Assembly: GCA_016839765.1 (NCBI GenBank)
Contig: JAEOTP010000016.1
Coordinates: 32,001 to 96,000 of the forward strand
Length of the DNA: 64,000 nucleotides
Reading direction: 5' to 3'
DNA from: Promethearchaeota archaeon
GTDB lineage: Archaea > Asgardarchaeota > Lokiarchaeia > Sigyniarchaeales > SOKP01
Part shown: piece by piece, positions 1-17,859 of the stretch
How the letters are laid out: every line of letters starts with the position of its first letter
How positions within the stretch are numbered: the first letter of the stretch is position 1
Notes under the pieces: model-generated
The model's database searches: none
Told to the model about the DNA's origin: nothing
The model's input: only the letters and a program-made list of their open reading frames with translations
Position numbers and translations under genes: made by a program

Positions 1-3000
1 CTTATTGGAACTCCAATCTTCACCTTCATTCTTGTAAACACTCGCTTTATTTCATATATTGATGAAGAAAGTGTGGAATATGTCAAAAGAAATGCTGCCT
101 TATTTACAAAGTCCCATCAAAATGATGACGGATTATTTTTAGAACCAGACTTAGATACTAATTTTAGAGCCATTGATTCTATTAATTTCACCCATGTGAA
201 TAATACAGATTCTCGTTTAATAAATCCCAACAATTTAAGAAATGATTTAATTAAAAAACTGGCCCCAAATTTCTTTTTCGACTACATATTTGAAAAACAA
301 AATATTAATGGAGCCTATTCAGATATAGGTGGTTTAGGGAATATGATTTCTACCTATGAAGCAATAAAAACAATTGAGGTGGCAAATAAATCTTACCTTA
401 ATCGTAAAATAATGGAAAATAAAACAATCGAAATTATTAATTATCTAAATGATTCATTGAATGGAAATGGGTTGGGATTTAAGGTTGCTCCCCTTTTGAA
501 TTATTCGGACATCATCTCAACATCTTATGCAATTGAATTAGCCCAAATTCTTTCGGGAGCTTCGATATTAAATAATAAAAATATAAGTAAATATATAAAT
601 TCTACATGGGTAATAACAGGGGGGTATGCTTTGACTAATTTCTCCTTAATTCCTACTCCTGAAACCACTTTTCATGGAATTCGAGCATATATTGGCATGA
701 ATATGACTTATGATAATGCGAGTGAATTTGCTATTTCATCCTATATTAACTCATCATATAATATGGATGGGGGTTTTAGAAATAGTCTTGGGCTGATTTC
801 TGACATTGAATCAACATATTACTGTTTAGCATCTTTAGATTTATTAAATTTACCTATAATTAATGAAAATACTACTCTTAATTTCATTTTAAATTGCAGT
901 AATCCAGACGGAGGTTTTAGTCAGCATCCAGTTTTTACAACACCATCAGACTTTAATTATGGTTGGGCTGCAATGAAAGCCTTATCAATTTTAGAAAAAT
1001 TATATAACTTTACACCCAGTATTGAAAATAGAATAAATGAAATAAAACTTAATTATTATAACTGGTTGCATGATCACCAAGCAATAAATTCTTTATTTGG
1101 TCATATCACTTTAGAATATAATTATTTTGGAGTTTTAGCATTAAGAAATTATAGTCCTGAAAATCTATATGAATGGATTAATACCACACAGACCGATAAT
1201 ATATTAGCTTATGTTTATAATTGTTATAATATAGAGGATGGTGGCTTTGGTTCAAGACCGGATTTAAATTCTACTCTTTTTTCAACGTATTGTGCCCTGA
1301 ATTTAATCAACTTTATTGAACCGTATGAGTTAAATCAATTTCACGAGCAAAATAAATCAAAAACCATACACTATTTAGTAGGTCTCCAAAATCCTGATGG
1401 AGGTTTTAGAGTCGGAAATGATATTGATTTTTTACTTTCCTTATTCGGCCCGTATTATAACTATTTCCTAAATTTAATCAATACAAATGTTTCTATGGTG
1501 GAAAGTACGTATTGGGCATTAATTTCGCTTGACATACTTCAAAGTAGTCATTTAATTGATCGAAATAACCTTTCACATTGGATAAAATCATGTCAAAATC
1601 CAGACGGAGGTTTTTCAATTTTTATTGGATTTCATAGTGATATAATCTCTACATATTTTGGTCTTGAAATATTTAACCAATTTTTTTCTTCTGAACCAAT
1701 GGCCAAGATTGCTGTAATTGAATTCTTAAAACTTGCGCAAATGTCTGATGGAAGTTTTTCAATATTACCCGCTATAGGTCAATTCATAGAATTACCATCA
1801 ACATTTTTAGTTACATATTTAGCGTCTAAGGCTCTCTACGATTACCGTTTTCAACCAGAAGATATTCAAGGAGCATTAAATTGGTATAGAGAATGCATAA
1901 GTGAAACAACTGGGGGTTTTGGAGATAACCCGGGTTTTGGAGGAGATTTAAGAAATGCCGCTTATGGAATAGTTATAATTGATGAACTAAAACATGATCA
2001 GGCTTTTGATTCTAAACCATGGAATGATTTGTTATTTTATATTCTTATTGTTGAGCTTATAGGTTTCGGATTATTTATCTTATTGAAGTTATATCAGAGG
2101 CTTTCTATTCCACAGAGGATAAAATTATTATTTGGAATAGGAGAAAAGTTAACTCCGTCATACCTGCAACAATTTCCTGCTATAAACTGCGAAAATTTTA
2201 GTGTATATGCTGGTGGGACATTGATAGTTGATTCAGTATCAATGAGTATATCGCATGGTAAAATTCTTGGCATTCTAGGAGAAAGTGGAGCTGGGAAGTC
2301 AACATTTATAAAGGGTTTACTAGGTATGAGAAAAACCACAGGATTTTGCCAAATTTATGGAATGAACATGAGTAAGAGAACATCAAAAAGAATACGACCC
2401 ATTTATGGTTATGTACCTCAAGATTTGGGAAAACTTTATCATAATTTCACCACTTTAGAAAATTTATTATATTTTGGGAATCAATATGGATTGACTGAAA
2501 AAGAGATAATAAGTAAATCTAAAAGGATACTGAGAAGCTTAGATATTGAAGACAAGATGCAAGAATTAGTAAAAAATTTATCTGGGGGCGAAAAAAGGCG
2601 AGTTAGTATTGCTATTGGTTTGACACATTCCCCAATTTTTCTTATTTTAGATGAACCAACTTCTGGATTAGATCCAATAATAAGGGAGAGTTTATGGCTA
2701 ACACTTACAAAAATTAATGAGCAATTTAAAACCACACTAATAGTTATCACACATTATCCAGAAGAATCGCGTTTTTGTAATGATGTAGCAATTTTCGGGA
2801 GAAAACGGGGCATGATTGATTTTGGAAAGCCAAAAGAACTGCTAGATCAATTACCAGGGAAAGGACGCTCAGTGGAGCTACAGTTTTATAAGCCTATTGA
2901 AAATGCCATAGAATCGCTTGAATCTATTGAAGGCATCGAAAAGGTTTTAGAAAATAAGGTTGGAACAAATTTTTCAATCTTTACCAACTTAAATGTAAAT

Positions 3001-3129
3001 GAATTATTTAATAAAATAGAAAATGTAATTGGTAACGATTCTGTTCAATTATTAAAACAAATAGATTCAAAGATGGAACAATTCTTTAGATATAAAGCTA
3101 TGGAGGTGCCTAAAATTGAAAAGCTTTAA
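1..3129 (+). CDS. Membrane-anchored prenyltransferase/squalene-oxidase-repeat (alpha/alpha barrel) ectodomain - TM - ABC ATPase fusion (5' partial)
   Basis: Frame is open from base 1 (LIGTPIFTFILVNTRF, hydrophobic), so the true start lies upstream. Many (N/Q)xDGGF...STYxAL repeats, then TM LLFYILIVELIGFGLFILL, Walker A GESGAGKS, Q-loop YVPQ, LSGGE, Walker B ILDEP, H-loop ITH. Confidence 0.85.
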   Translation, partial: LIGTPIFTFILVNTRFISYIDEESVEYVKRNAALFTKSHQNDDGLFLEPDLDTNFRAIDSINFTHVNNTDSRLINPNNLRNDLIKKLAPNFFFDYIFEKQNINGAYSDIGGLGNMISTYEAIKTIEVANKSYLNRKIMENKTIEIINYLNDSLNGNGLGFKVAPLLNYSDIISTSYAIELAQILSGASILNNKNISKYINSTWVITGGYALTNFSLIPTPETTFHGIRAYIGMNMTYDNASEFAISSYINSSYNMDGGFRNSLGLISDIESTYYCLASLDLLNLPIINENTTLNFILNCSNPDGGFSQHPVFTTPSDFNYGWAAMKALSILEKLYNFTPSIENRINEIKLNYYNWLHDHQAINSLFGHITLEYNYFGVLALRNYSPENLYEWINTTQTDNILAYVYNCYNIEDGGFGSRPDLNSTLFSTYCALNLINFIEPYELNQFHEQNKSKTIHYLVGLQNPDGGFRVGNDIDFLLSLFGPYYNYFLNLINTNVSMVESTYWALISLDILQSSHLIDRNNLSHWIKSCQNPDGGFSIFIGFHSDIISTYFGLEIFNQFFSSEPMAKIAVIEFLKLAQMSDGSFSILPAIGQFIELPSTFLVTYLASKALYDYRFQPEDIQGALNWYRECISETTGGFGDNPGFGGDLRNAAYGIVIIDELKHDQAFDSKPWNDLLFYILIVELIGFGLFILLKLYQRLSIPQRIKLLFGIGEKLTPSYLQQFPAINCENFSVYAGGTLIVDSVSMSISHGKILGILGESGAGKSTFIKGLLGMRKTTGFCQIYGMNMSKRTSKRIRPIYGYVPQDLGKLYHNFTTLENLLYFGNQYGLTEKEIISKSKRILRSLDIEDKMQELVKNLSGGEKRRVSIAIGLTHSPIFLILDEPTSGLDPIIRESLWLTLTKINEQFKTTLIVITHYPEESRFCNDVAIFGRKRGMIDFGKPKELLDQLPGKGRSVELQFYKPIENAIESLESIEGIEKVLENKVGTNFSIFTNLNVNELFNKIENVIGNDSVQLLKQIDSKMEQFFRYKAMEVPKIEKL

Positions 3130-4819
3130 AATGAGCGAACTAGAGCGCCTTAGACTAAAAACTTTAGACGCTATACGCTTTTCTAAACGATTTTGGATGA
3201 CATATAGGGAAAATACTTTTGGAATTGCCTCTATTATAAATTTAGTTTATAAAAAGTCTTTTTTTGAAGTTTTATTCTTTACAAATAAAGATGTTCTAGA
3301 GAAGGGAGTCCCTTTATTAAAAATTTATACTCCTATCGAAGAGCAAATAGATTTTGATGAAATCATAGTAGAACCTGATTTTGATGATGATGGACTTGTT
3401 AGTCCGGTGAAAATCATCGGTCGAATGAGAAAGCTTATAAGAAGAGAGTTTCAGAAACATTTAGCATTCTTGGATAAAGAAATAGAACTTCTTGATGAAA
3501 TATATGAAAATTTCCCCATAGATAATATTCCTTACCATAGAGAAATAGGCATTTATTTCCCTGATTTTGTAGTAAAGCTTAACATAAATTTTGAAAAATT
3601 TCCATCTATTCCTTCCTTTTCTTTTTCAAAAACTCTTTCAAGAATTGTAAGTGAAAGAGAATTTAACGAATCTGCTATTATCACAGACTGGAATGAATTA
3701 AACCCACCTCATATATATGAGTTAGTAGAAAAATTAACTCAAATTGTAACCGATCGTTTAAAAGTAGAACCTATAAAATTTAATTCTCAACACCTTGTGG
3801 TTGATAATTTTTCAATAGGGGGTAATATAAAAGACATCTCATTTAAGATCCATAGAGGTAAATCAATAGGGATTGTTTATGATAAAGAATTGTTCGAGAA
3901 TGCGGAGCATAGTTTGACATTATTAAAACTTTTTGAGGCTATATCAGGTGAACATCCTAATTTTTCAGGCAGAATTGAGATCTTTGGTAGATATGTTCAA
4001 TTATTACCCGCATATGATATGGAGAGAATTTTTATCTTACCCCAAGCTTATGAGTCAAAATTAACTAAAATGAAGCTTAAAAAAGCAGTTCAATATAGTA
4101 TAGATATTAAGGGTATCCTTAAAGAAAGAAAAGTTGCTTTGGATAAGGTTTTAAAAAATGCAGGATTAACTTCTAAAATGGGAGATATCGTGAATGATCT
4201 TCTTACAGAAGCACCTCTTTTACAATTTACTCGGAGGAAAGAATTTATTAAAAATGCTTTAACAGCCACGGGTTTGTGGAATAAAAAGAAAAAAAGATTT
4301 TCTCAATTAACACCTTTAGAATTTTTACTATTTTCAATTGGAAGAGCATTGCTTCAATCACCTATAATTGTAATGTTTTCAATACCTTTTGGATTACTTA
4401 ATAGAATAGACTTTGAGAAATTCAACAAATATATGAATCGCATAAAAGAAGTATTCCATATAATACTTATTTTTCATGGCCCAGAAGGAATTGCTTCAAA
4501 ATGTGATCAAATTCTAACTGTTTCTCAAAGTGTATCTAAAATAGGAACCCATGAGGACTACATCAATGCACTACCATATGCGGGTGAATATATTACAGTT
4601 GAATTCAATAATGCAGATGAGAATTTAATTAAGAAAATAAATGAATTCGAAGAAGTTAATAGAATAATTGAAGAAAGGAAAAATGAAAAATATAAGATAT
4701 ACATAAAAGAAAATCCAGATAAATTAATAATAAATTTAACAGAATTGTTTGGAGCAAATCTTTTTAGCTTCAAAATTTCAAAAGCATCAATAGGTGATTA
4801 TTTAGAATTTAACCAATAA
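3116..4819 (+). CDS. N-terminal UBC/UEV/RWD-like domain(s) fused to degenerate ABC ATPase domain
   Basis: GGAGGTG lies 7 nt before TTG 3116. ABC scaffold recognisable (DISFKIHRGKSIGIV, SGRIEIFG, FILPQ, IGRALLQSP) but Walker A, signature (LTPLE) and Walker B (MFSIP) are degenerate. N-terminal FLDKEIELL...FPSIP...WNELNPPHIYELV resembles the UBC fold. Confidence 0.6.
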   Translation: MKSFKMSELERLRLKTLDAIRFSKRFWMTYRENTFGIASIINLVYKKSFFEVLFFTNKDVLEKGVPLLKIYTPIEEQIDFDEIIVEPDFDDDGLVSPVKIIGRMRKLIRREFQKHLAFLDKEIELLDEIYENFPIDNIPYHREIGIYFPDFVVKLNINFEKFPSIPSFSFSKTLSRIVSEREFNESAIITDWNELNPPHIYELVEKLTQIVTDRLKVEPIKFNSQHLVVDNFSIGGNIKDISFKIHRGKSIGIVYDKELFENAEHSLTLLKLFEAISGEHPNFSGRIEIFGRYVQLLPAYDMERIFILPQAYESKLTKMKLKKAVQYSIDIKGILKERKVALDKVLKNAGLTSKMGDIVNDLLTEAPLLQFTRRKEFIKNALTATGLWNKKKKRFSQLTPLEFLLFSIGRALLQSPIIVMFSIPFGLLNRIDFEKFNKYMNRIKEVFHIILIFHGPEGIASKCDQILTVSQSVSKIGTHEDYINALPYAGEYITVEFNNADENLIKKINEFEEVNRIIEERKNEKYKIYIKENPDKLIINLTELFGANLFSFKISKASIGDYLEFNQ

Positions 4820-4835
4820 ATTATGAGGTAATTGT

Positions 4836-5639
4836 ATGTTTAAGAGTCTTTATATTATGGATGAAAATGGAATTGTTTTATATTCTAAAAATTTTATGAG
4901 AGAGAAGTATGATGATAATATTTTAGTAGGATTTTTCGCATCAATCGCTAATTTTAGCAGGGAAGCATTAGGAAGTGTAATTAAAAACGTTGATTTAGGA
5001 CAAAATAATAAGCTTATCTTACTTCCCATCTCAGAAGAAAATCTACTAGGAGCTGTAATTGTTAGTTCAAATGATAATAACCAGTTAATTTTAACTATTT
5101 TAAGAGATATTTTACAAGATTTTATTGATACTTTCGCTCCAGATTTCGATCCTGAAAAAATTTTTGAGGAGGAAATGGAAAAAATAATCCAAAATAATAT
5201 GAAAGGTAAAATAATGCAATCACCAAAAATTAGATTTTTACTTGCTTGGTTAATTGCGGCACCATTATCGTATCTACTTATTTTTTTAAGTATTTTCGCT
5301 ACGGATTTTCTTTATTCTATTTTTCGGCTGAACCAATATTTAAATCCTGCCCAAATTTTAACTCGCTTTACGCCATCCTTAATTTTATTATCAACAGTAA
5401 ATATAGTCATACTATTTCTGCTTCCAAACTTAATCCTTGGGTATCTTTCTCCCAATTGGAAAATCGCTACAGTAAATTCTTTTATACATTTGGCGGTTAC
5501 AATAACGTTATATTTCTTTTCTATAGAACCTAACTTTGCATACATAATTGTAGGATACCTCCCCTTAGCGTTAATTTTTTCATTGTTCTTCCTTTTCATC
5601 GGTATTCGTTATTCTTCAAAAAAATTCTTAAAAAAATAA
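4836..5639 (+). CDS. Longin-like domain protein with ~4 C-terminal TM helices
   Basis: MFKSLYIMDENGIVLYSKNF...LVGFFASIANFSRE is a typical longin beta-beta-alpha start. The C-terminal half is hydrophobic. Confidence 0.7.
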   Translation: MFKSLYIMDENGIVLYSKNFMREKYDDNILVGFFASIANFSREALGSVIKNVDLGQNNKLILLPISEENLLGAVIVSSNDNNQLILTILRDILQDFIDTFAPDFDPEKIFEEEMEKIIQNNMKGKIMQSPKIRFLLAWLIAAPLSYLLIFLSIFATDFLYSIFRLNQYLNPAQILTRFTPSLILLSTVNIVILFLLPNLILGYLSPNWKIATVNSFIHLAVTITLYFFSIEPNFAYIIVGYLPLALIFSLFFLFIGIRYSSKKFLKK

Positions 5640-5804: not shown

Positions 5805-8054
5805 TTGAGCAATAAAAATCTTAAGTTGGACTTTAATGTCGGAAATTATAAGTCTATTTTTAATACTATACCTACTCCCACTTATATCTGGAAAGTAGAT
5901 AATGATGATTTCAAATTAATTGATTGTAATAAAGCAGCAGAAATTATTACTGAAGGAAAAATTTTAGATTATTTAGGTTTAAGTTTAATAGACATATATG
6001 ATGAAGATTCTGAAGTCTCTAAGGATCTAAAAAAGTGTTTTTATGAAAAAATTAATTTTTCAAAAGAAATGCTTTATAAATATAAGAGTACTGGTAAACA
6101 GAAGGTTCTTTATACAACCTATAACTTTATACCACCGAATCTTGTTATTGTCTTTACAGAAGATATCAGTAAACAAAAAGAAGCAGAAAGTTTATTGAAA
6201 AAGACTGAAGGCGAAAAATCTATAATATTAGAAAGCATTTCAGAGCATATTGTTTATCAAGATTTAAATAATAGAATTATCTGGACAAATAAAGCCGCAG
6301 CAGATTCAGTTGGTTTAACTAGCGATCAATTAATTGGAAAAAAATGTCATAAGATTTGGAATAACCGTGATGATAAATGTCCTGGTTGTCCAGTTATTTC
6401 TGCAGTTGAAACTTGTAAACCGACTATGGCAGAAATGACTACTCCAGATGGCAGAGTATGGTTAGTTAAAGGATTTCCCGTTTTTGATGAAAAAGGAAAT
6501 GTTATAGCCGCTGTTGAAATCACTAATGAAATTACAAAGATTAAACAGGCTGAAGAAAAATTAAAAGTTTCAGAACTACAATATCGTAATACAATTGATT
6601 CAATGGGCGATGCTATACACGTCATTGATAAAGATTTAAGACTTATTCTTATTAATCCAGCAATTATAAGATGGCTTGAGGTTTTAGGTTTACAAACCGA
6701 TGTTATAGGTAAAAAACTAAATGAGGCCTTTCCTTTTTTACCTGAAAAAGTTCTTGATGAATACAAACAGGTATTAGATTCTGGAGAAACCCTTATTACG
6801 GACGAGGAGACTTTTATTAAGGGAAAAACTTACTGTACTGAATCTCGAAAGATTCCAATAATTAGTAAGGGAAAGATAAATCAAATTGTAACTATTGTCC
6901 GTGATTTTGGTGAAAGGAAAATCTCTGAGCAAAAATTAAAAGCATCAGAAAAAAAGTTTCGTCACCTTTTTGACACTTCTCCTTATGGCATAGTATTGTT
7001 AGATCTTAAAGGCGATATAATCGATTGTAACACATCTACAAATAGGTTTTTATCAAAACATACGATAGATGATTTGATTGGTAGAAATTTTAGAGAAATT
7101 TGGTTCATTCATGAAAAAAACAAAAATTTAATATCTTTTTTCGAAAACATAATTGAAAGAGTAATAAATGGTGAAAAGATTAAAAATTTGGAATTCCCTA
7201 TAAATAGATCACTTGGAGGTATAATTTGGGTAAATAGTAGTATATCATTGACAAAGTTAGGAGACGAATCATTAATACAATTCATATTAGAGGATATTTC
7301 AGATAAAAAAAAAGCTGCAACCGAGTTAAAAGAATCAGAAAAAAGATATCGTGAAGCTTTTAATCGTTCTAATTTTTATAAGGATCTTTTCGCTCATGAT
7401 ATAAATAATATTTTTCAAAATATTCAATCATCCTCTGAATTACTCTCTTTATTATTAGATGAAATGAATATTACTAAAGGAAATAATTTTGTAGATATTA
7501 TTAAAGATCAAATTATTAGAGGCTCAACTTTAATTTCAAATGTAAGGAAACTTTCAGAAATTGAAGAAATTGAATCTCCATTGAAAAAAGTTGAATTATT
7601 TGGAGTTCTTAATGAAGTTAAGAATTATATCATTAAATCCTTTCAAAATAGAAAGATTAATCTTGAAATTCTCTCTGATGAAAAGCAAATATTTGTTAAT
7701 GCAAATGAGATATTACCAGATGTATTTGAAAATATTTTAATTAATGCTATAAGATATAACCAAAACTCTTTAATAGAATTAATGATAAGGGTGTCTAAAG
7801 ACATTTCTGATGGAAAAAATTTCATTCGAATGGAATTTATCGACAACGGTATCGGCATTCCAAATGAAATGAAAGAAAAAGTTTTTCAGAGAGGTTATAA
7901 TCACAGGGGTATTATTAAGGGCTTGGGGCTGGGATTAACACTTGTAAAGAAAGTAATTGGAATTTACAATGGACAAATTTGGGTCGAAGATAAAGTTATT
8001 GGTGATTACACTCAAGGAAGTAAATTTATATTATTAATCCCAGAGGTGGAGTAA
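5805..8054 (+). CDS. Soluble multi-PAS sensor histidine kinase
   Basis: About four PAS/PAC repeats; H-box FAHDINN; N-box NILINAIRY; DNGIGI; GLGLGL. Confidence 0.93.
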   Translation: MSNKNLKLDFNVGNYKSIFNTIPTPTYIWKVDNDDFKLIDCNKAAEIITEGKILDYLGLSLIDIYDEDSEVSKDLKKCFYEKINFSKEMLYKYKSTGKQKVLYTTYNFIPPNLVIVFTEDISKQKEAESLLKKTEGEKSIILESISEHIVYQDLNNRIIWTNKAAADSVGLTSDQLIGKKCHKIWNNRDDKCPGCPVISAVETCKPTMAEMTTPDGRVWLVKGFPVFDEKGNVIAAVEITNEITKIKQAEEKLKVSELQYRNTIDSMGDAIHVIDKDLRLILINPAIIRWLEVLGLQTDVIGKKLNEAFPFLPEKVLDEYKQVLDSGETLITDEETFIKGKTYCTESRKIPIISKGKINQIVTIVRDFGERKISEQKLKASEKKFRHLFDTSPYGIVLLDLKGDIIDCNTSTNRFLSKHTIDDLIGRNFREIWFIHEKNKNLISFFENIIERVINGEKIKNLEFPINRSLGGIIWVNSSISLTKLGDESLIQFILEDISDKKKAATELKESEKRYREAFNRSNFYKDLFAHDINNIFQNIQSSSELLSLLLDEMNITKGNNFVDIIKDQIIRGSTLISNVRKLSEIEEIESPLKKVELFGVLNEVKNYIIKSFQNRKINLEILSDEKQIFVNANEILPDVFENILINAIRYNQNSLIELMIRVSKDISDGKNFIRMEFIDNGIGIPNEMKEKVFQRGYNHRGIIKGLGLGLTLVKKVIGIYNGQIWVEDKVIGDYTQGSKFILLIPEVE

Positions 8055-8055
8055 T

Positions 8056-8436
8056 TTGACTTCAATTTTGATTGTAGAGGATGACATATACCTGCAAAAA
8101 TTATATGAAATGATGTTAAAAACCCAAGGATTTAAGATAATTGGCAAAGCAGGGAATGGCTCTGAAGCAATTAATATTTTTAAGGCTCTACGAAATAAAC
8201 CTGACATTGTTTTGATGGATCACAGAATGCCCATTAAAAATGGAATCGATACTACTCTCGAACTTACTAGATTAAATTCTCATACTAAAATTATATTTAT
8301 TAGCGCAGATAATTCCGTGAAAAAACAGGCGCTCTCAATTGGAGCAAAGAGTTTTATTGAAAAACCGTTCAGTATTGATCAACTAAATAATGTAATTAAG
8401 AAAGTTATAGAAAACTCTAAAGTTGTGAATAATTAA
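8056..8436 (+). CDS. Single-domain response regulator (CheY-like)
   Basis: ILIVEDD, DIVLMDHRMP, FISA, FIEKP; starts 1 nt after the kinase. Confidence 0.93.
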   Translation: MTSILIVEDDIYLQKLYEMMLKTQGFKIIGKAGNGSEAINIFKALRNKPDIVLMDHRMPIKNGIDTTLELTRLNSHTKIIFISADNSVKKQALSIGAKSFIEKPFSIDQLNNVIKKVIENSKVVNN

Positions 8437-11802: not shown

Positions 11803-13311
11803 ATGAAAAAGAAAAAAGCAATTGCGATTATTGCTGCTTTAGTTATTGTAGCGGGAGTAACTACTACGTTACTGCTGGTATTTCTATTTCCCAGTCCAGG
11901 AGTATATACAGGTCAAAGGAAAGCATTAATCTGCTGTAGTGCAAATGATTTTTTTGGTTCAGAACCTGAGGAACCATTTAATGATGGACATGATTCTAAT
12001 TTAAATAACATTATTAAAGATGAAGGGAATTGGTCATTTACTAATATAGAAAATTGTTTAGGACAACATACTATGCTTGAAGCTTATGAAGGGCCTCTAA
12101 ATGGCAGTTTGCTTATGAAAGCTATTATAGATGGACCATTCTCAGGGATTTTTTCTCTTAATTGGACACAATCTGGTTATACTCTTTATGAATATGCTTA
12201 TTATAATATTTCAGCCATGATTAAAATTATAGATACAGGAGGATTAATAGGTAAGGGGGCTCGAATTGGATTACAATGGCTGGATTCCGATGGAGATGTA
12301 ACTAGAACTGACTGGTCAAATTATATTAATAATACAAATTCAGAATGGGCATTTTTAAATTCTACAGGAGTTTGCAATAATGAAACAGGAAAAGAAATAA
12401 CGGAATTAAAACTTGTGTTATGTGTAAATTTCACATTATCTATTGCTTTAACAGATTATATTTTCTTTGATTACATCAAAATAGATAAGTGGGTTTTAGT
12501 AGATTTAGACAATCCTACTGATCCTGGTACTCCTCCTCCGCCTCCAGGCATAAATTCAGATGGATTCCCTGCTCAGGCATTACAAGTATATTGGATATTG
12601 AAAAATCATGGTTATACAGATGAAAATATCTTTTTGATGTTATATTATAAGGATGATGCAGATGGAATTATTGATATTAAGTTAGGTGGTAAACCAGATG
12701 ATTTAGTTGGTGCAGTTATTGATTTAGCTAATAACAGTGTAAATGCTACAAGTTTCAAACAAGAGTTAAATGTTTCTTATGCAGGTTCTTTTGCTTCCAC
12801 CATACAACCACAAGATTATCTAATTATATATATGTGTGATCATGGTTCAAATAAAATACCTGGTCAAGCTCCCAATGCTACATTCCATTTTGAAGCGGAT
12901 AATAGTTTTATTACAGAATTAGAATTTTATAATTTAGTTAAGCAAATAAATTGTCAGAGAATAATGATAAATGTAGATTGCTGTTTTAGTGGTAATTTTC
13001 TAAATCAAAATATTGTTGGTCAGAGCTGGTATGATATTGAAAATTGTATCATGGTTAGCGCTTCTTCGAATTTACTTGCTTGGTATTATATAAATAATAA
13101 AAATCTTGATGGATTTGCAGGTTCCTGGTTCTTTCATATGTTTTGGGATGCGTTAAATCAGTCTGCGACTATTTACGATGCTTTTAATCATGCCAATATC
13201 TGGCCTCCAGCTGCTCGTGGAATGCCATTATTTTTGATTCAGAATCCAATGTGGGATGATAATATGGGTATTAATAAAACATTAAGCTTCGATAGCGATC
13301 CTCCATTATAG
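11803..13311 (+). CDS. Membrane-anchored clan CD (caspase/legumain-like) cysteine peptidase with inserted beta-sandwich domain
   Basis: N-terminal KKKK plus hydrophobic anchor; catalytic dyad motifs YLIIYMCDHG and INVDCCFSG; late QNP motif. Confidence 0.75.
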   Translation: MKKKKAIAIIAALVIVAGVTTTLLLVFLFPSPGVYTGQRKALICCSANDFFGSEPEEPFNDGHDSNLNNIIKDEGNWSFTNIENCLGQHTMLEAYEGPLNGSLLMKAIIDGPFSGIFSLNWTQSGYTLYEYAYYNISAMIKIIDTGGLIGKGARIGLQWLDSDGDVTRTDWSNYINNTNSEWAFLNSTGVCNNETGKEITELKLVLCVNFTLSIALTDYIFFDYIKIDKWVLVDLDNPTDPGTPPPPPGINSDGFPAQALQVYWILKNHGYTDENIFLMLYYKDDADGIIDIKLGGKPDDLVGAVIDLANNSVNATSFKQELNVSYAGSFASTIQPQDYLIIYMCDHGSNKIPGQAPNATFHFEADNSFITELEFYNLVKQINCQRIMINVDCCFSGNFLNQNIVGQSWYDIENCIMVSASSNLLAWYYINNKNLDGFAGSWFFHMFWDALNQSATIYDAFNHANIWPPAARGMPLFLIQNPMWDDNMGINKTLSFDSDPPL

Positions 13312-13452: not shown

Positions 13453-16400
13453 TTGTCAAACGTAGAAAAGAAAACTGCGTATCCGTATATTACGGAATTC
13501 AAAAGAGAACCTTTTGAATCGTTTGTACTAATAGATAGGAAAAAAATTGGGAGTTTCCATCTAAGTTATTATAATAAAATCATAAATCTTTATCAATCAA
13601 AAGTTAAAACGCTATTTAAAGAGCCTAGTTTAGACTTAGAGTATTTATATTGGTTTCTCTTATTAGGGAAATATCTGAAAGAGGATCTCACTACTCAAAA
13701 ACATGAGTTTTATGCTTTCATTAAAAATTGTGAAGTGGATATTTTAGAGAAGCATCAAATAAGTTTTAAATTAAATCCTCAATCTAAAGCTGTACCTGAT
13801 ATTTGGTCTTTATATTATGCCCTATCTAGTTTGCATATATTAGGATTGCTAGAAGAATATCTTCTCTCAAAAGGAAGTAATGATCTTGTAAGAAAAGTTA
13901 AAAATTTTATATATGAACATAAAAAAGGTGAAATTTTTCTCCACTGTCTTGATAAACAATGTGATATTCATAAAAAACCATTTTCTTCAAAGACTTTTTA
14001 TTATATCCTTGAAATTCTCACACTTATAGGTTCAGATGTTAGAGTATTTAAAGAACAATTCCGTATATATTTGAATAGCAGAAAAAAAATTCCTTCCATG
14101 CTATTCAAATATCTATCTCTTAAGTATTTAAATCTGGATTTAGAAGTAAAAGATAAAGAGCTTCAATATTTCCATCAATTTCAAAAATATGATGGTGGAT
14201 TTAACTTCTCTAACGGAGAAGGAAATATAGATGATACTTTTTGGATAATTTATACTTTTGATCATTTTTCATGGCTAATGGATTACAACCCTGCCAGAAT
14301 CTATTCATTCATCAACGAAAATATTCAAACACTTTTTGAAAGTAGTAATGAACAAGCTTCACTCATATTCCTTAATTTGTCCAAGGTCACAATACTTTTA
14401 TCTTTTATATGGAAAAAGTTTATTGGAGAGATTGAAAGGCTGATTTTTAAAGAAATAGAAAAAAATGGATTCGTAGATATTAAACACATAAAAACAGCTT
14501 TTGGATTAACCCATGGAATTGAAGAGATCATCCTATATATTAATTTAAGTTATAATTTTAAGCTAAAAATCATAAGTAATACATTAGAATTTAATAATTT
14601 TCTTATAACCCTCAATGATGGATTAAAAGTAATTGCGAATGAAATATGTAATCAGTTAAAGGAAAATAGCATAATATCTCTTTCTGACATTCTAAAGAAT
14701 TATAAATCATCTTATCATTTTGAATCATTGAAAATGAAAGAGGATATTATTCCTCTAATTAATGATATGATGGAAAAGAATTTTTTCAAGGGAAATATTC
14801 GAACTAAATCAAAATTTCTAGGAAAATCAAAATATTACTTTTACTTGGATTTTCTTCTAGATGATGTTATAACTTCTGACATGAAAATAAATACAGAGAA
14901 GGTATTAGAAGAAAAAGAAAAATTGGGTGATATTAAGAATGATATCTATAATATGACTTTAATTTTAAAAAATACCTCCACACAGATTAAAGAAGAAATT
15001 GAATCCTATTTACTTCTAGACGAAATCGACTATGCAAAAGAACGATTGAGATTTATTTTGAGAAATGCATTATTGGAAGCTGATTTTCTAAATGAAAATA
15101 TTGAAAATTCATTTAGTCAAGATATGAGATATATCAATATTCAAGCAGTATTAGCAACTGAAATTAATCAATGGAAAAAAGCATACTCTATAATGCAGAA
15201 GAAGCTAAATGCAGTTGAGAAATATTTAAAAGAAAAAATTTCCGAAAAAGAAGAATTAAAAAAATTTAATGTTATTTTAGATGAATTAAATAATAGAATT
15301 TTTGAAATTGGGGAATTTATTAAAAAAGAATTAGATTCATTTAGAAAATATTTTAGAGAGAAGCTTGAATCTGGTTTTATTAACGATAAATATAATTTAA
15401 TAATTGGTGAATTTAATAAAATCTCGAATTATGTAGAGAAGTATGATCATACAATTTATAAAATATCACAACAAATTACGATAAAAGAAGAGAAAGTTTT
15501 CAAGAAACATAAGGGAATTATCGATAATTGGGTTAACTTAAAAGAAGAATTTGAGTCGATCTTCAATTATTATGCTGAAGGATTTAAATTTTTCGAGCAA
15601 ACAATTGAAAAAATTGATGGAATTAATGATGAAACTGAAAAAGAAATATCTTATATAAAACAAAAAGCAGATGAAAAAATTTCTCAGAATCAATTCAAAG
15701 AAGCTTTTGAGATTATAAAAAAGGATTCTGAAAGCTTATTAAATCAAAAAATAAAGGAAATAAAGGATCTCAAAATAATTGTCTTAAATCAAATTAAAGC
15801 TAATCAAAAACTATTCCTTCTTTTTCAATATTTAAAAGAAAAATTGGATGTAATAGAAGAATCAATTATAAATTTGGTAGCAGAACAAGTTCAATCGCTA
15901 AAGGATGAAGTATTGGAAGAGAGAAATAGGGCTAAAATTGAAGATTTTGATAATTTTATATCTGAACAAATTCAGAGATTCAAGATTAGATTAAAATTTT
16001 ACAAAACTAAACTAAGTGAAGCAAAAAGTATAAAAATCAAGGATGTAATTGATGGCTTTGACAGAATAATCATAGAATTAGATGATAAGTATAAAATCTT
16101 CTTGAAAAAATTAAATAATTTAAAAACAATAATACAAAATTTTGATCAAAATTCGATTACAGTTATCCAATGGGAAAATTTTTATGATTATCTAACAACT
16201 GAGATTAATAATTTGAAAGAGAATCATGTTAATCAAATTATCATTAGTGAAATAGAGATCTGGTCTAAAGAGAAAAAAACTAATAAAGTAGATATAACAG
16301 AGCTTGCAAATAAATTAAATTTAAAATGCAAATCAGTAATACCTCTCATTAAAGAAATGATAGAATTCTCTAAAATTGAGGGTGATTTAAATGAAGAAAA

Positions 16401-17859
16401 GAAATCAATGATTGTTCATAATGATGATTATTATAAAAATAAGGAATTAAACACTTATATTGATACTAAGCTTTTGAAATTTCATCAAGAAAAAATTGGG
16501 AAGATTTTAGCACTCTATGATTCAGGAGTTAGAAATAAAAAATTAGCAGTTAATATACTAGAACTAGAGAATAGAATCAAAGAATATTCAGATTTAGAGA
16601 ACAAAATTAGAATTCAATATGAAGATAAAGTAAACCAACTTCAAATTATTGAAGAGAGAGAAGAAAATCTTAACACTAAAAAAGAACTAGAAAATATAAT
16701 AACAAATGGAAAGATGGCAATTCAAAAAATAAAAGCCAATTTAAATTTCTTTAATGAGTTCCAAATTTTTATTTCAGAAGAATATAATTTATTAACATTA
16801 GATTTTGTGAATAACCTTATCAAAGCTTTTGAAAATATCGAACATTTTGGTTCTTATGTAAAAGCTATTGAACATTTTGAATCTAAAAAAAGTAAATTTG
16901 ATGTTAAGGTAAAACATATTGAGGAAAAGATTAATGAAAAACTAAAAGGGTCACTAACTAAAAATTCTAGTTTCAAACGGCTCGAAACTGAAATAAGGGA
17001 GTTTTATGTCCTCAAAAAGAATGAATTTGGAGCTTTTTACAAAGCTAAATTGGATAAAATCAATGAAGATATTAATATATTGAAGGATGATACCTACCGA
17101 AGTGAATTATTAGACAAAATAAATAAAATAAAAATACGTTTAAGTCAATTATTAGGAACACTTCAGACTAGAGTTGAAGATTACATAGAATATAAAGAAT
17201 TTAAAAGAGCTCATGTGAAAGTACAAAAAAGAGAAAAGAAAATCGAGGTAGAAATTAGAGACGTTTCAAAAAACATAAAAAATTTAGTTAGAGAATATGA
17301 AAGAAAGTCAAAGAATTTCGAAACTAAGAATAGGTATTTACTAGATGATTTTGAGCAGTTTATTAAAGGTTTTCATGATTTAATGAATGAAAAAGTTAAA
17401 TCTCTAGATGAGATGATAATCAAATCATATGTTTCAATGGCGATTAAAGCTGTGGCAGACCAATATTTGACAATAAGCTTTTTACAGAACGAGTTAAAAA
17501 TAAAGAAACAGAAAATTCAAGAGCATTTAATTTCTTTAATAAGTTCAGGGAAATTAGAAGGAAAATATGATCCTCGTATTGGATTGTATTATGAAAATCC
17601 AGATCTATTAGATAAAGTAGATGAATCTGAACTAGAGGTTATGAAGAAAATGAATTTTAGATTTTATATGTTCTGGAGGCGCCTAAGGAGTTTTGCAAGC
17701 CAAAACTATAGTATATTTGCATTCCTAGCGGCAATTTTATCTATTACCCTCTCATTATTCAATTTTACCGGTCCAGCTATATTTATACTATTATTCGTTT
17801 TAGTAATAATACTTGCTTTATATCTATTAATTAAACGAAAAAAGCAAGAAAAAATCTGA
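13453..17859 (+). CDS. Large tail-anchored protein: degenerate prenyltransferase-like barrel, coiled coils, PCI-like winged helices, C-terminal TM hairpin
   Basis: DIWSLYYALSSL and QKYDGGF repeats; long K/E-rich helical region; VDITELANKL...KIEGDL and LTISFLQNEL...GKLEGKYD; hydrophobic C-terminus ending KRKKQEKI. Confidence 0.6.
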   Translation: MSNVEKKTAYPYITEFKREPFESFVLIDRKKIGSFHLSYYNKIINLYQSKVKTLFKEPSLDLEYLYWFLLLGKYLKEDLTTQKHEFYAFIKNCEVDILEKHQISFKLNPQSKAVPDIWSLYYALSSLHILGLLEEYLLSKGSNDLVRKVKNFIYEHKKGEIFLHCLDKQCDIHKKPFSSKTFYYILEILTLIGSDVRVFKEQFRIYLNSRKKIPSMLFKYLSLKYLNLDLEVKDKELQYFHQFQKYDGGFNFSNGEGNIDDTFWIIYTFDHFSWLMDYNPARIYSFINENIQTLFESSNEQASLIFLNLSKVTILLSFIWKKFIGEIERLIFKEIEKNGFVDIKHIKTAFGLTHGIEEIILYINLSYNFKLKIISNTLEFNNFLITLNDGLKVIANEICNQLKENSIISLSDILKNYKSSYHFESLKMKEDIIPLINDMMEKNFFKGNIRTKSKFLGKSKYYFYLDFLLDDVITSDMKINTEKVLEEKEKLGDIKNDIYNMTLILKNTSTQIKEEIESYLLLDEIDYAKERLRFILRNALLEADFLNENIENSFSQDMRYINIQAVLATEINQWKKAYSIMQKKLNAVEKYLKEKISEKEELKKFNVILDELNNRIFEIGEFIKKELDSFRKYFREKLESGFINDKYNLIIGEFNKISNYVEKYDHTIYKISQQITIKEEKVFKKHKGIIDNWVNLKEEFESIFNYYAEGFKFFEQTIEKIDGINDETEKEISYIKQKADEKISQNQFKEAFEIIKKDSESLLNQKIKEIKDLKIIVLNQIKANQKLFLLFQYLKEKLDVIEESIINLVAEQVQSLKDEVLEERNRAKIEDFDNFISEQIQRFKIRLKFYKTKLSEAKSIKIKDVIDGFDRIIIELDDKYKIFLKKLNNLKTIIQNFDQNSITVIQWENFYDYLTTEINNLKENHVNQIIISEIEIWSKEKKTNKVDITELANKLNLKCKSVIPLIKEMIEFSKIEGDLNEEKKSMIVHNDDYYKNKELNTYIDTKLLKFHQEKIGKILALYDSGVRNKKLAVNILELENRIKEYSDLENKIRIQYEDKVNQLQIIEEREENLNTKKELENIITNGKMAIQKIKANLNFFNEFQIFISEEYNLLTLDFVNNLIKAFENIEHFGSYVKAIEHFESKKSKFDVKVKHIEEKINEKLKGSLTKNSSFKRLETEIREFYVLKKNEFGAFYKAKLDKINEDINILKDDTYRSELLDKINKIKIRLSQLLGTLQTRVEDYIEYKEFKRAHVKVQKREKKIEVEIRDVSKNIKNLVREYERKSKNFETKNRYLLDDFEQFIKGFHDLMNEKVKSLDEMIIKSYVSMAIKAVADQYLTISFLQNELKIKKQKIQEHLISLISSGKLEGKYDPRIGLYYENPDLLDKVDESELEVMKKMNFRFYMFWRRLRSFASQNYSIFAFLAAILSITLSLFNFTGPAIFILLFVLVIILALYLLIKRKKQEKI

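Follow-up and report, generated by a model that had tools for sequence, protein, structure and literature searches.

What kind of system is formed when a prenyltransferase-like domain joined to an ATP-binding cassette (ABC) ATPase, an inactive ATPase with ubiquitin-conjugation-like repeats, and a longin-fold membrane protein are encoded side by side? Three such genes open the window analyzed here, a stretch of 64,000 nucleotides (nt) from a Promethearchaeota archaeon (C67:32001-96000, where C67 is contig JAEOTP010000016.1) whose genome is 96% complete. The open reading frames, all on the + strand, lie at 1..3129 (open at its 5' end), 3116..4819, and 4836..5639, with a 14-nt overlap followed by a 16-nt gap, in agreement with a preliminary description of the window. 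That description took the three products for a receptor-like system. Its domains are real, but the genes are the back half of a six-gene operon with a full transporter core upstream. We read this operon of Lokiarchaeia, at about even chances, as encoding a type V exporter (ABC-2; ABCA/ABCH-like) built from six subunits, of which a dead ATPase and a longin protein are accessory.

Operon layout and transporter core

The six genes and the parts of their products are located as follows (TM, transmembrane; aa, amino acids).

C67:28528-29682, same strand as PT-ABC: permease A, 384 aa, upstream of the window
C67:29672-30919, same strand as PT-ABC: permease B, 415 aa, upstream of the window
C67:30932-31921, same strand as PT-ABC: ABC1, a plain ATPase, 329 aa, upstream of the window
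1..3129, + strand: PT-ABC gene, encoding a first TM helix, a double prenyltransferase-like toroid (predicted outside), a second TM helix, an intact ABC ATPase, and a regulatory domain
58..2028, + strand: PT-ABC ectodomain, residues 41-697, 12 prenyltransferase repeats in two toroids
1945..1956, + strand: PT-ABC polar patch D670-L-R672-N673, in the last repeat
2029..2085, + strand: second TM helix of PT-ABC, with basic residues after it (cytoplasmic side)
2170..3105, + strand: intact nucleotide-binding domain of PT-ABC and beta-alpha-beta-beta-alpha-beta regulatory domain
3116..4819, + strand: dead-ABC gene, 567 aa, TTG start
3137..3769, + strand: two tandem UEV/RWD-like domains of dead-ABC, residues about 8-112 and 113-218
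3776..4816, + strand: pseudo-ATPase (ABC fold) of dead-ABC and C-terminal regulatory domain
4836..5639, + strand: longin-TM gene, 267 aa, with a longin domain in residues 1-126 (nt 4836-5213) and about four TM helices in residues 130-263

The true start of PT-ABC lies 63 nt upstream of the window edge, giving a full product of 1063 aa. Gaps between the six genes are, in order, -11, 12, 16, -14, and 16 nt. Ribosome-binding-like motifs occur 6-7 nt before the starts of both dead-ABC and longin-TM, and the one that precedes the TTG start of dead-ABC is GGAGGTG at 3102-3108. A scan for bacterial promoters and terminators returned chance-level results. All six genes, arranged as permease A, permease B, ABC1, PT-ABC, dead-ABC, longin-TM, are found in 38 loci, each from a different genome, and six of these carry insertions of 1-2 kb; most of the remaining fetched loci end at contig borders and are hence incomplete. 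The grouping proposed in the preliminary description is syntenic across Lokiarchaeia genomes.

A type V transporter requires two membrane domains and two ATPases (PMC8386196). The two six-helix membrane domains of such a type V/ABC-2 transporter appear to be supplied by the upstream permeases, each of which has about six TM helices and matches ABC2_membrane_3 (E 3e-27 each). Permease A has a sole solved sequence relative, insect ABCH (PDB 8YZP/9JU6), and aligns to its membrane domain over residues 3-371 (E 1e-14). ABC1 is complete, with Walker A, Q-loop, signature, Walker B, D-loop, and H-switch all present, and it also bears a C-terminal regulatory domain. The best NCBIfam matches were DrrA and RbbA for the ATPase and RbbA and SagH for the permeases, all below cut-offs. 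One permease had been suspected upstream of the window; two were found, plus an intact third ATPase.

The barrel-bearing ATPase and the dead ATPase were previously thought to form an asymmetric working dimer. Real asymmetric ABC dimers retain one consensus site. The PT-ABC/dead-ABC pair would retain none, with Walker A lost from one site and the signature from the other, so this pair cannot be the motor. The similar C-terminal domain noted in both proteins is present, but it is the common type V regulatory domain, occurs in ABC1 too, and is not special to the pair. A regulatory domain after the ATPase is a feature of a subset of type V systems (PMC11466899). From gene content, gene order, folds, motif states, and phylogeny we propose that ABC1 and the intact ATPase of PT-ABC would form the motor, with two consensus ATP sites, and that permeases A and B would form a heterodimeric membrane path; the proposal extends to the direction of transport, the cargo, and the contacts of the accessory proteins.

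Like the operon, YbhFSR has two different permeases and two different ATPase domains (PMC13739795). In contrast to YbhFSR, RbbA/YhhJ, DrrAB, and GldAFG, the operon encodes its ATPases separately and joins one of them, through a membrane tether, to an exterior domain of 650 aa. None of those systems is known to have a pseudo-ATPase or a longin subunit. Unlike ABCA and ABCH, the operon is split into separate genes and adds a dead ATPase, a toroid ectodomain, UEV repeats, and a longin subunit; its kinship to ABCA/ABCH versus bacterial ABC-2 systems was judged by best matches and not by phylogeny. A literature search, with most subscription papers outside its reach, found no paper on this combination, as the preliminary description had supposed. 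The transporter is of a known type, and the three add-ons (toroid, UEV-pseudo-ATPase, and longin-TM) are new to the literature found.

In 8 of 43 loci, the ABC1 gene carries a 31-34 nt insertion at a single site just after Walker B (L037:7317-7372, L040:7667-7722, L041:7088-7143, L084:5772-5828, and L088:4041-4098; also L092, L122, and L126). It is absent in the window's genome. The insertion folds as a bulge-helix-bulge with two 3-nt bulges and a 4-bp central helix. Across five copies, 90% of cells pair and six pairs vary on both sides. Excision at the bulges restores the frame, and the insertion sequences differ between genera. This is likely a tRNA-type mini-intron in an Asgard protein-coding gene.

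The toroid ectodomain and its tethered ATPase

PT-ABC matches Prenyltrans (PF00432, E 2.6e-37) and ABC_tran (E 1.7e-25). Hydrophobic helices at residues 15-33 and 698-716 bracket a 657-residue domain, with basic residues before the first helix and after the second. The domain contains 21 N-glycosylation sequons, or 3.2 per 100 aa, which is above all 955 soluble proteins of the genome and equal to the density in the permease exterior loops; the cytoplasmic part of PT-ABC has 1.75, itself somewhat high. Sequon density favors an exterior location of the toroid and is supportive, not decisive. The two halves of the ectodomain align to each other (probability 99.8), which together with the 12 repeats indicates a double toroid. 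The anchor, barrel, TM helix, and active ABC domain described previously were recovered, except that the barrel is two toroids.

The closest solved relatives of the ectodomain are the beta subunits of GGTase-II and FTase (profile E 1e-26 to GGTase-II beta), with which it shares the repeat and the alpha/alpha toroid family, and class II terpene cyclases likewise have two toroids. In contrast to these enzymes, the PT-ABC toroid lacks the zinc-binding Asp/Cys/His set and DxDD and is predicted to be exterior, and the operon has no alpha subunit. None of the 12 repeats has Cys at +2 or His at +3 among the common residues of 39 homologs, and a separate set of alignments agrees. DxDD occurs in two of the 39 anywhere in the ectodomain and never at a repeat position, and the thioester motif is absent. 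The inner-helix aromatic positions are conserved. In the last repeat, D670 (39/39 homologs), R672 (38/39), and N673 (39/39) form a patch that sits where prenyltransferases and cyclases hold catalytic residues. D670-L-R672-N673 is a candidate ligand or permease contact, and we read the ectodomain as a probable non-catalytic binding domain.

All motifs of the PT-ABC nucleotide-binding domain are intact in each of 19 homologs checked. This domain is conserved better than any other part of the protein, with a mean identity of 77% versus 50%-55% in the toroids. Its best solved relatives are human ABCA3, ABCA4, ABCA1, and ABCA7 and insect ABCH. A longer version of the ectodomain, fused into a single chain as in ABCA proteins, was not found, which is weak evidence. 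A type V ATPase joined through a TM helix to an extracellular domain has a precedent in Bacillus subtilis TagGH (PMC11466899), which differs from the operon in having the ATPase first, another exterior fold, a homodimeric state, and no accessory genes.

In the exporter we propose, the TM helices of PT-ABC would keep the double toroid at the outer face, next to the exterior domains of the permeases. There it would receive, bind, or present cargo, most likely an isoprenoid lipid or a similar hydrophobic molecule, since the isoprenoid-binding ancestry of the toroid and the ABCA/ABCH kinship favor such a cargo. An exterior, non-catalytic toroid with a near-invariant polar patch could instead be the substrate-binding protein of an importer or inward flippase. 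Alpha6/alpha6 barrels are binding domains in transcobalamin-type proteins, and the patchy, all-or-none distribution of the operon would suit an accessory nutrient trait. ABCA4 and plant type V proteins import (PMC8386196). Export is, however, the rule for most type V systems. Profile searches of solved structures matched the ectodomain to prenyltransferases and terpene cyclases only, and catabolic genes are not linked to the operon across genera. We consider import improbable.

The pseudo-ATPase and the longin protein

The dead-ABC model (mean pLDDT 87.9) has two helix-four-strand-helix units, a long joining helix, an ABC fold, and a regulatory domain of four strands and two helices at residues 491-556. 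In a fold search with the whole model, the list was filled by matches of the C-terminal part to ABC ATPases (Z up to 19.6), and the N-terminal domains were left to profile comparison. The alignments to TM_1403, NosF, and ABCA4 extend across the regulatory domain to residue 567. Walker A is present in 0 of 74 dead-ABC rows. In 21 diverse homologs, both the signature and Walker B have degenerated, while the regulatory-domain motifs persist. The signature glycines are missing from the window's protein and from nearly all homologs; a few Helarchaeales-type copies retain a near-consensus signature. In a maximum-likelihood tree with long branches and no outgroup root, the dead domains cluster with the ATPases of PT-ABC and with a sister ATPase that is fused to PCI (support 98/94), apart from ABC1 and the other ABC ATPases of the genome. 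The dead ATPase thus appears, from these sequence comparisons, to be a decayed paralog of the PT-ABC ATPase.

A profile of the dead-ABC N-terminus found 128 clusters. Unit 2 matches a repeat family that also occurs in proteins with UQ_con, RWD, and RING matches (on overlapping stretches for two of them), and members of this family match UQ_con/UEV/BRE/RWD. The only credible solved matches of the family profile are BRE/BRCC45 (E 0.003) and two E2-fold entries (E 0.007). Unit 1 aligned to the repeat-2 family with E 1e-4 and probability 55 (hhalign) and has the same predicted topology; a profile of repeat 1 alone matched no solved structure. There is moderate support for a UBC-like alpha-beta4-alpha fold with a YPxxP turn. 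The helix-four-strand-helix repeats, the YPxxP-type turn, and a conserved Trp are shared with BRE/BRCC45, UEV, and RWD domains. In contrast to these, the dead-ABC repeats are fused to a pseudo-ATPase, and the match is remote. The UBC-like domain of the preliminary description is a tandem pair, and profile matches to BRE and the E2 fold agree with the fold it had assigned. HPN was found in 0 of 74 rows, and Cys is frequent only at position 208 (last helix), where the window's protein has Thr. With neither HPN nor the E2 cysteine, dead-ABC is not an active E2 ubiquitin-conjugating enzyme. An Rpb8 match was taken as chance. Proteins with two to four BRE/UEV-like repeats, often with CxxC pairs or RING domains, occur elsewhere (P0268, P0270, P0271, P0273, and P0275; L072), and members of about 550-600 aa are found in most genomes of the family, with or without the operon.

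Residues 1-126 of longin-TM superimpose on AP-3 mu, VAMP7, and Sec22 with Z 13.1-13.3 and a root-mean-square deviation of 2.3-3.1 Å over 110-121 residues, and the top 50 Foldseek matches are nearly all longin-fold chains. The model indicates a true longin fold, with a five-stranded antiparallel sheet between one and two helices in longin order, as had been suspected. The fold is shared with AP mu/sigma N-domains, VAMP7, Sec22, and TRAPP longins, and the domain is equally close to several of these families. Unlike them, it leads straight into a membrane anchor of about four TM helices; the SNARE coiled coil and single anchor of an R-SNARE (VAMP7/Sec22/Ykt6) are absent. The helix bundle had no fold match of its own in the fold-search lists. 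One homolog matched ABC2_membrane_3 (E 5e-6), and a permease remnant was considered and rejected on profile comparison with both permeases (probability <1). Co-folding of dead-ABC with longin-TM scored 0.00, which is no answer and was given no weight either way.

In the proposed exporter, the dead ATPase would not bind ATP and would dock on the cytoplasmic face through its conserved regulatory domain. Its UEV-like repeats, together with longin-TM, may serve as a scaffold or may regulate assembly, position, or activity.

The same domains could belong to a receptor or sensor in which a toroid ligand alters the nucleotide state, and the UEV repeats and longin relay the change to ubiquitin or small-GTPase/trafficking machinery. 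The longin fold and the BRE/UEV-like repeats are real, the UEV-like repeat family is also found in RING- and E2-containing proteins, and a VWA-RING gene stands right after longin-TM in one Helarchaeales-type locus. A complete transporter core is nevertheless co-inherited, and a pair of the active and dead ATPases would be left without a consensus site. Paralogous longin and UEV-like modules are, moreover, common in these genomes. A survey of conserved neighbors found no ubiquitin, E1/E2, or small-GTPase gene and no roadblock or second longin gene kept beside the operon, and a downstream PAS kinase is conserved in the genus only. A receptor is distinctly unlikely on this evidence; of the link to ubiquitin and trafficking made in the preliminary description, the folds stand and conserved neighbors of that kind do not. 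A combination, in which a lipid exporter is wired through the pseudo-ATPase to longin and UEV adaptors that couple export or surface sensing to ubiquitin- or GTPase-controlled trafficking, is conceivable, though we would not expect it. If true, it would be a prokaryotic counterpart of the regulated trafficking of lipid transporters in eukaryotes.

Distribution, related loci, and neighboring genes

The dead-ABC N-terminus has a strong match in 60 of the 116 genomes of the order with completeness of at least 85%, and 59 of these 60 are within the window's family. Every genome listed with the ectodomain and also included in the dead-ABC search has a dead-ABC match, and 19 of the 20 genomes listed without the ectodomain also lack one. 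Because the two are present or absent together, inheritance of the operon is near all-or-none, and it is dispensable for about half of the family. A search of 301 genomes drawn from the phylum found the ectodomain in the window's family and in two Helarchaeales-type genomes. It was also found in one genome from a different class, in copies that nest within those of Lokiarchaeales and possibly reflect transfer or misbinning. A scan that covered one genome per GTDB species, using patterns biased toward close relatives, returned 68 loci, all archaeal, and every named one is Asgard. Named relatives are Promethearchaeota/Lokiarchaeia, Helarchaeota-labelled bins among them, and ESM Atlas matches are to Promethearchaeota clusters only. 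In three single-contig genomes of a sister family, neither the dead-ABC N-terminus nor a full ectodomain was matched. The operon is restricted to Loki-type Asgard archaea and is well conserved there.

Insertions or rearrangements part dead-ABC and longin-TM from the core in several genomes, where the two still adjoin each other, and longin-4TM paralogs stand alone in Helarchaeales-type genomes. Both observations would fit a separate dead-ABC/longin-TM unit that is merely co-regulated with an ordinary exporter. Most loci, however, have overlapping or abutting genes, co-occurrence is all-or-none, and the dead ATPase seems to descend from the operon's own PT-type ATPase, which leaves a separate unit very improbable.

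Other departures from the common layout were seen. One genus (L083:9689-11068, L088:7753-9073, and L093:4477-5940) has two small genes inserted after PT-ABC and before dead-ABC; they encode a membrane protein of 240 aa and a protein of 150 aa that looks like a longin or roadblock. In G019, a genome 92%-96% identical to that of the window, the permeases are on one contig and the other four genes on another (L037 and L134), and large divergent genes lie between the two groups. An apparent 1505-aa fusion of PT-ABC and dead-ABC in G357 is an artifact of an assembly gap of Ns.

A sister locus was identified in two Helarchaeales-type genomes (L065:3274-11491 and L066:1324-9764). Its products are an ABC1-like ATPase, a subtilase, a single ABC-2 permease, and a PT-type ATPase that is intact; the locus has no dead copy. 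The subtilase (1278-1368 aa) is membrane-anchored and has a GIFT/MBTPS1-like (GIFT/ABC_transp_aux) domain, and the PT-type ATPase is fused to winged-helix/PCI repeats with UFL1-like matches. The pairing of ABC1-type with PT-type ATPases fits these two as the old pair.

The sister locus also bears on a further reading, in which the operon is not a pump across the membrane but a mechanotransducer, whose ATP-driven core motion extracts, hands over, or remodels what the toroid holds: a surface lipid, a lipid-anchored protein, or a cofactor. NosDFY acts on NosD in this way. A large exterior domain is hard-wired to one ATPase in PT-ABC, the fold matches that reach across the dead-ABC regulatory domain include NosF, and the sister locus sets its anchored subtilase beside the same type of ATPase pair. 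The permeases are nonetheless full six-TM ABC-2 proteins with their own exterior domains that match the transporter ABCH over their whole length, and no client gene is conserved in the operon. We regard a mechanotransducer as possible but unlikely.

Several observations count against the type V lipid exporter that we favor. Two Helarchaeales-type genomes have a dead-ABC gene that is divergent from the core, and their longin-TM paralogs are at other sites. The dead ATPase of one locus lacks UEV domains, and longin-TM is unmatched in that genome; the accessory parts are therefore not obligatory and look like later additions. Lipid-pathway genes are not conserved as neighbors outside the genus in the operon neighborhoods compared, and the best matches to ABCA/ABCH partly reflect which type V structures have been solved. 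The prokaryotic relatives YbhFSR and DrrAB export drugs. Some type V members import (PMC8386196).

Longin and UEV folds are among the eukaryotic signature domains of Asgard archaea, and few have a concrete functional context. Fixed together with a type V transporter in a near all-or-none operon, they define a candidate complex. A type V system that has three ATPase-fold subunits (one of them a pseudo-ATPase) per two permeases, and in which an exterior toroid of 650 residues is tethered to an ATPase, would extend the range of ABC architectures. The operon could also be relevant to the way in which the isoprenoid membrane and the surface of Lokiarchaeia are built or remodeled.

PAS kinase, FAD oxidase, and CoA ligase genes are neighbors at the genus level only; the PAS kinase gene adjoins the operon in many genomes of the window's genus and in none beyond it. 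The operon has a small Cys-rich gene at its flank in 26 loci; in some genera this gene is upstream, and in another it directly follows longin-TM. In the window's genome it encodes 175 aa (L001:9802-10329; C67:27802-28329), has conserved Cys/His motifs without a Pfam or NCBIfam match, and has four paralogs elsewhere. It may be a seventh member of the operon. The VWA (Ssl1-like) RING gene directly after longin-TM lies at L059:13970-15157, and at L111:2371-3609 a VWA-like gene converges on a permease homolog; these are the only two such cases. Within the window, a multi-PAS histidine kinase and receiver gene (5805-8436) lies directly downstream of the operon. Farther along are a 502-aa protein (11803-13311) with an N-terminal anchor and a peptidase C13 (legumain/GPI-transamidase-like) domain (E 5.7e-9), and a 1468-aa protein (13453-17859) with a weak N-terminal prenyltransferase-repeat match, long coiled coils, a PCI domain, and a C-terminal hydrophobic anchor.

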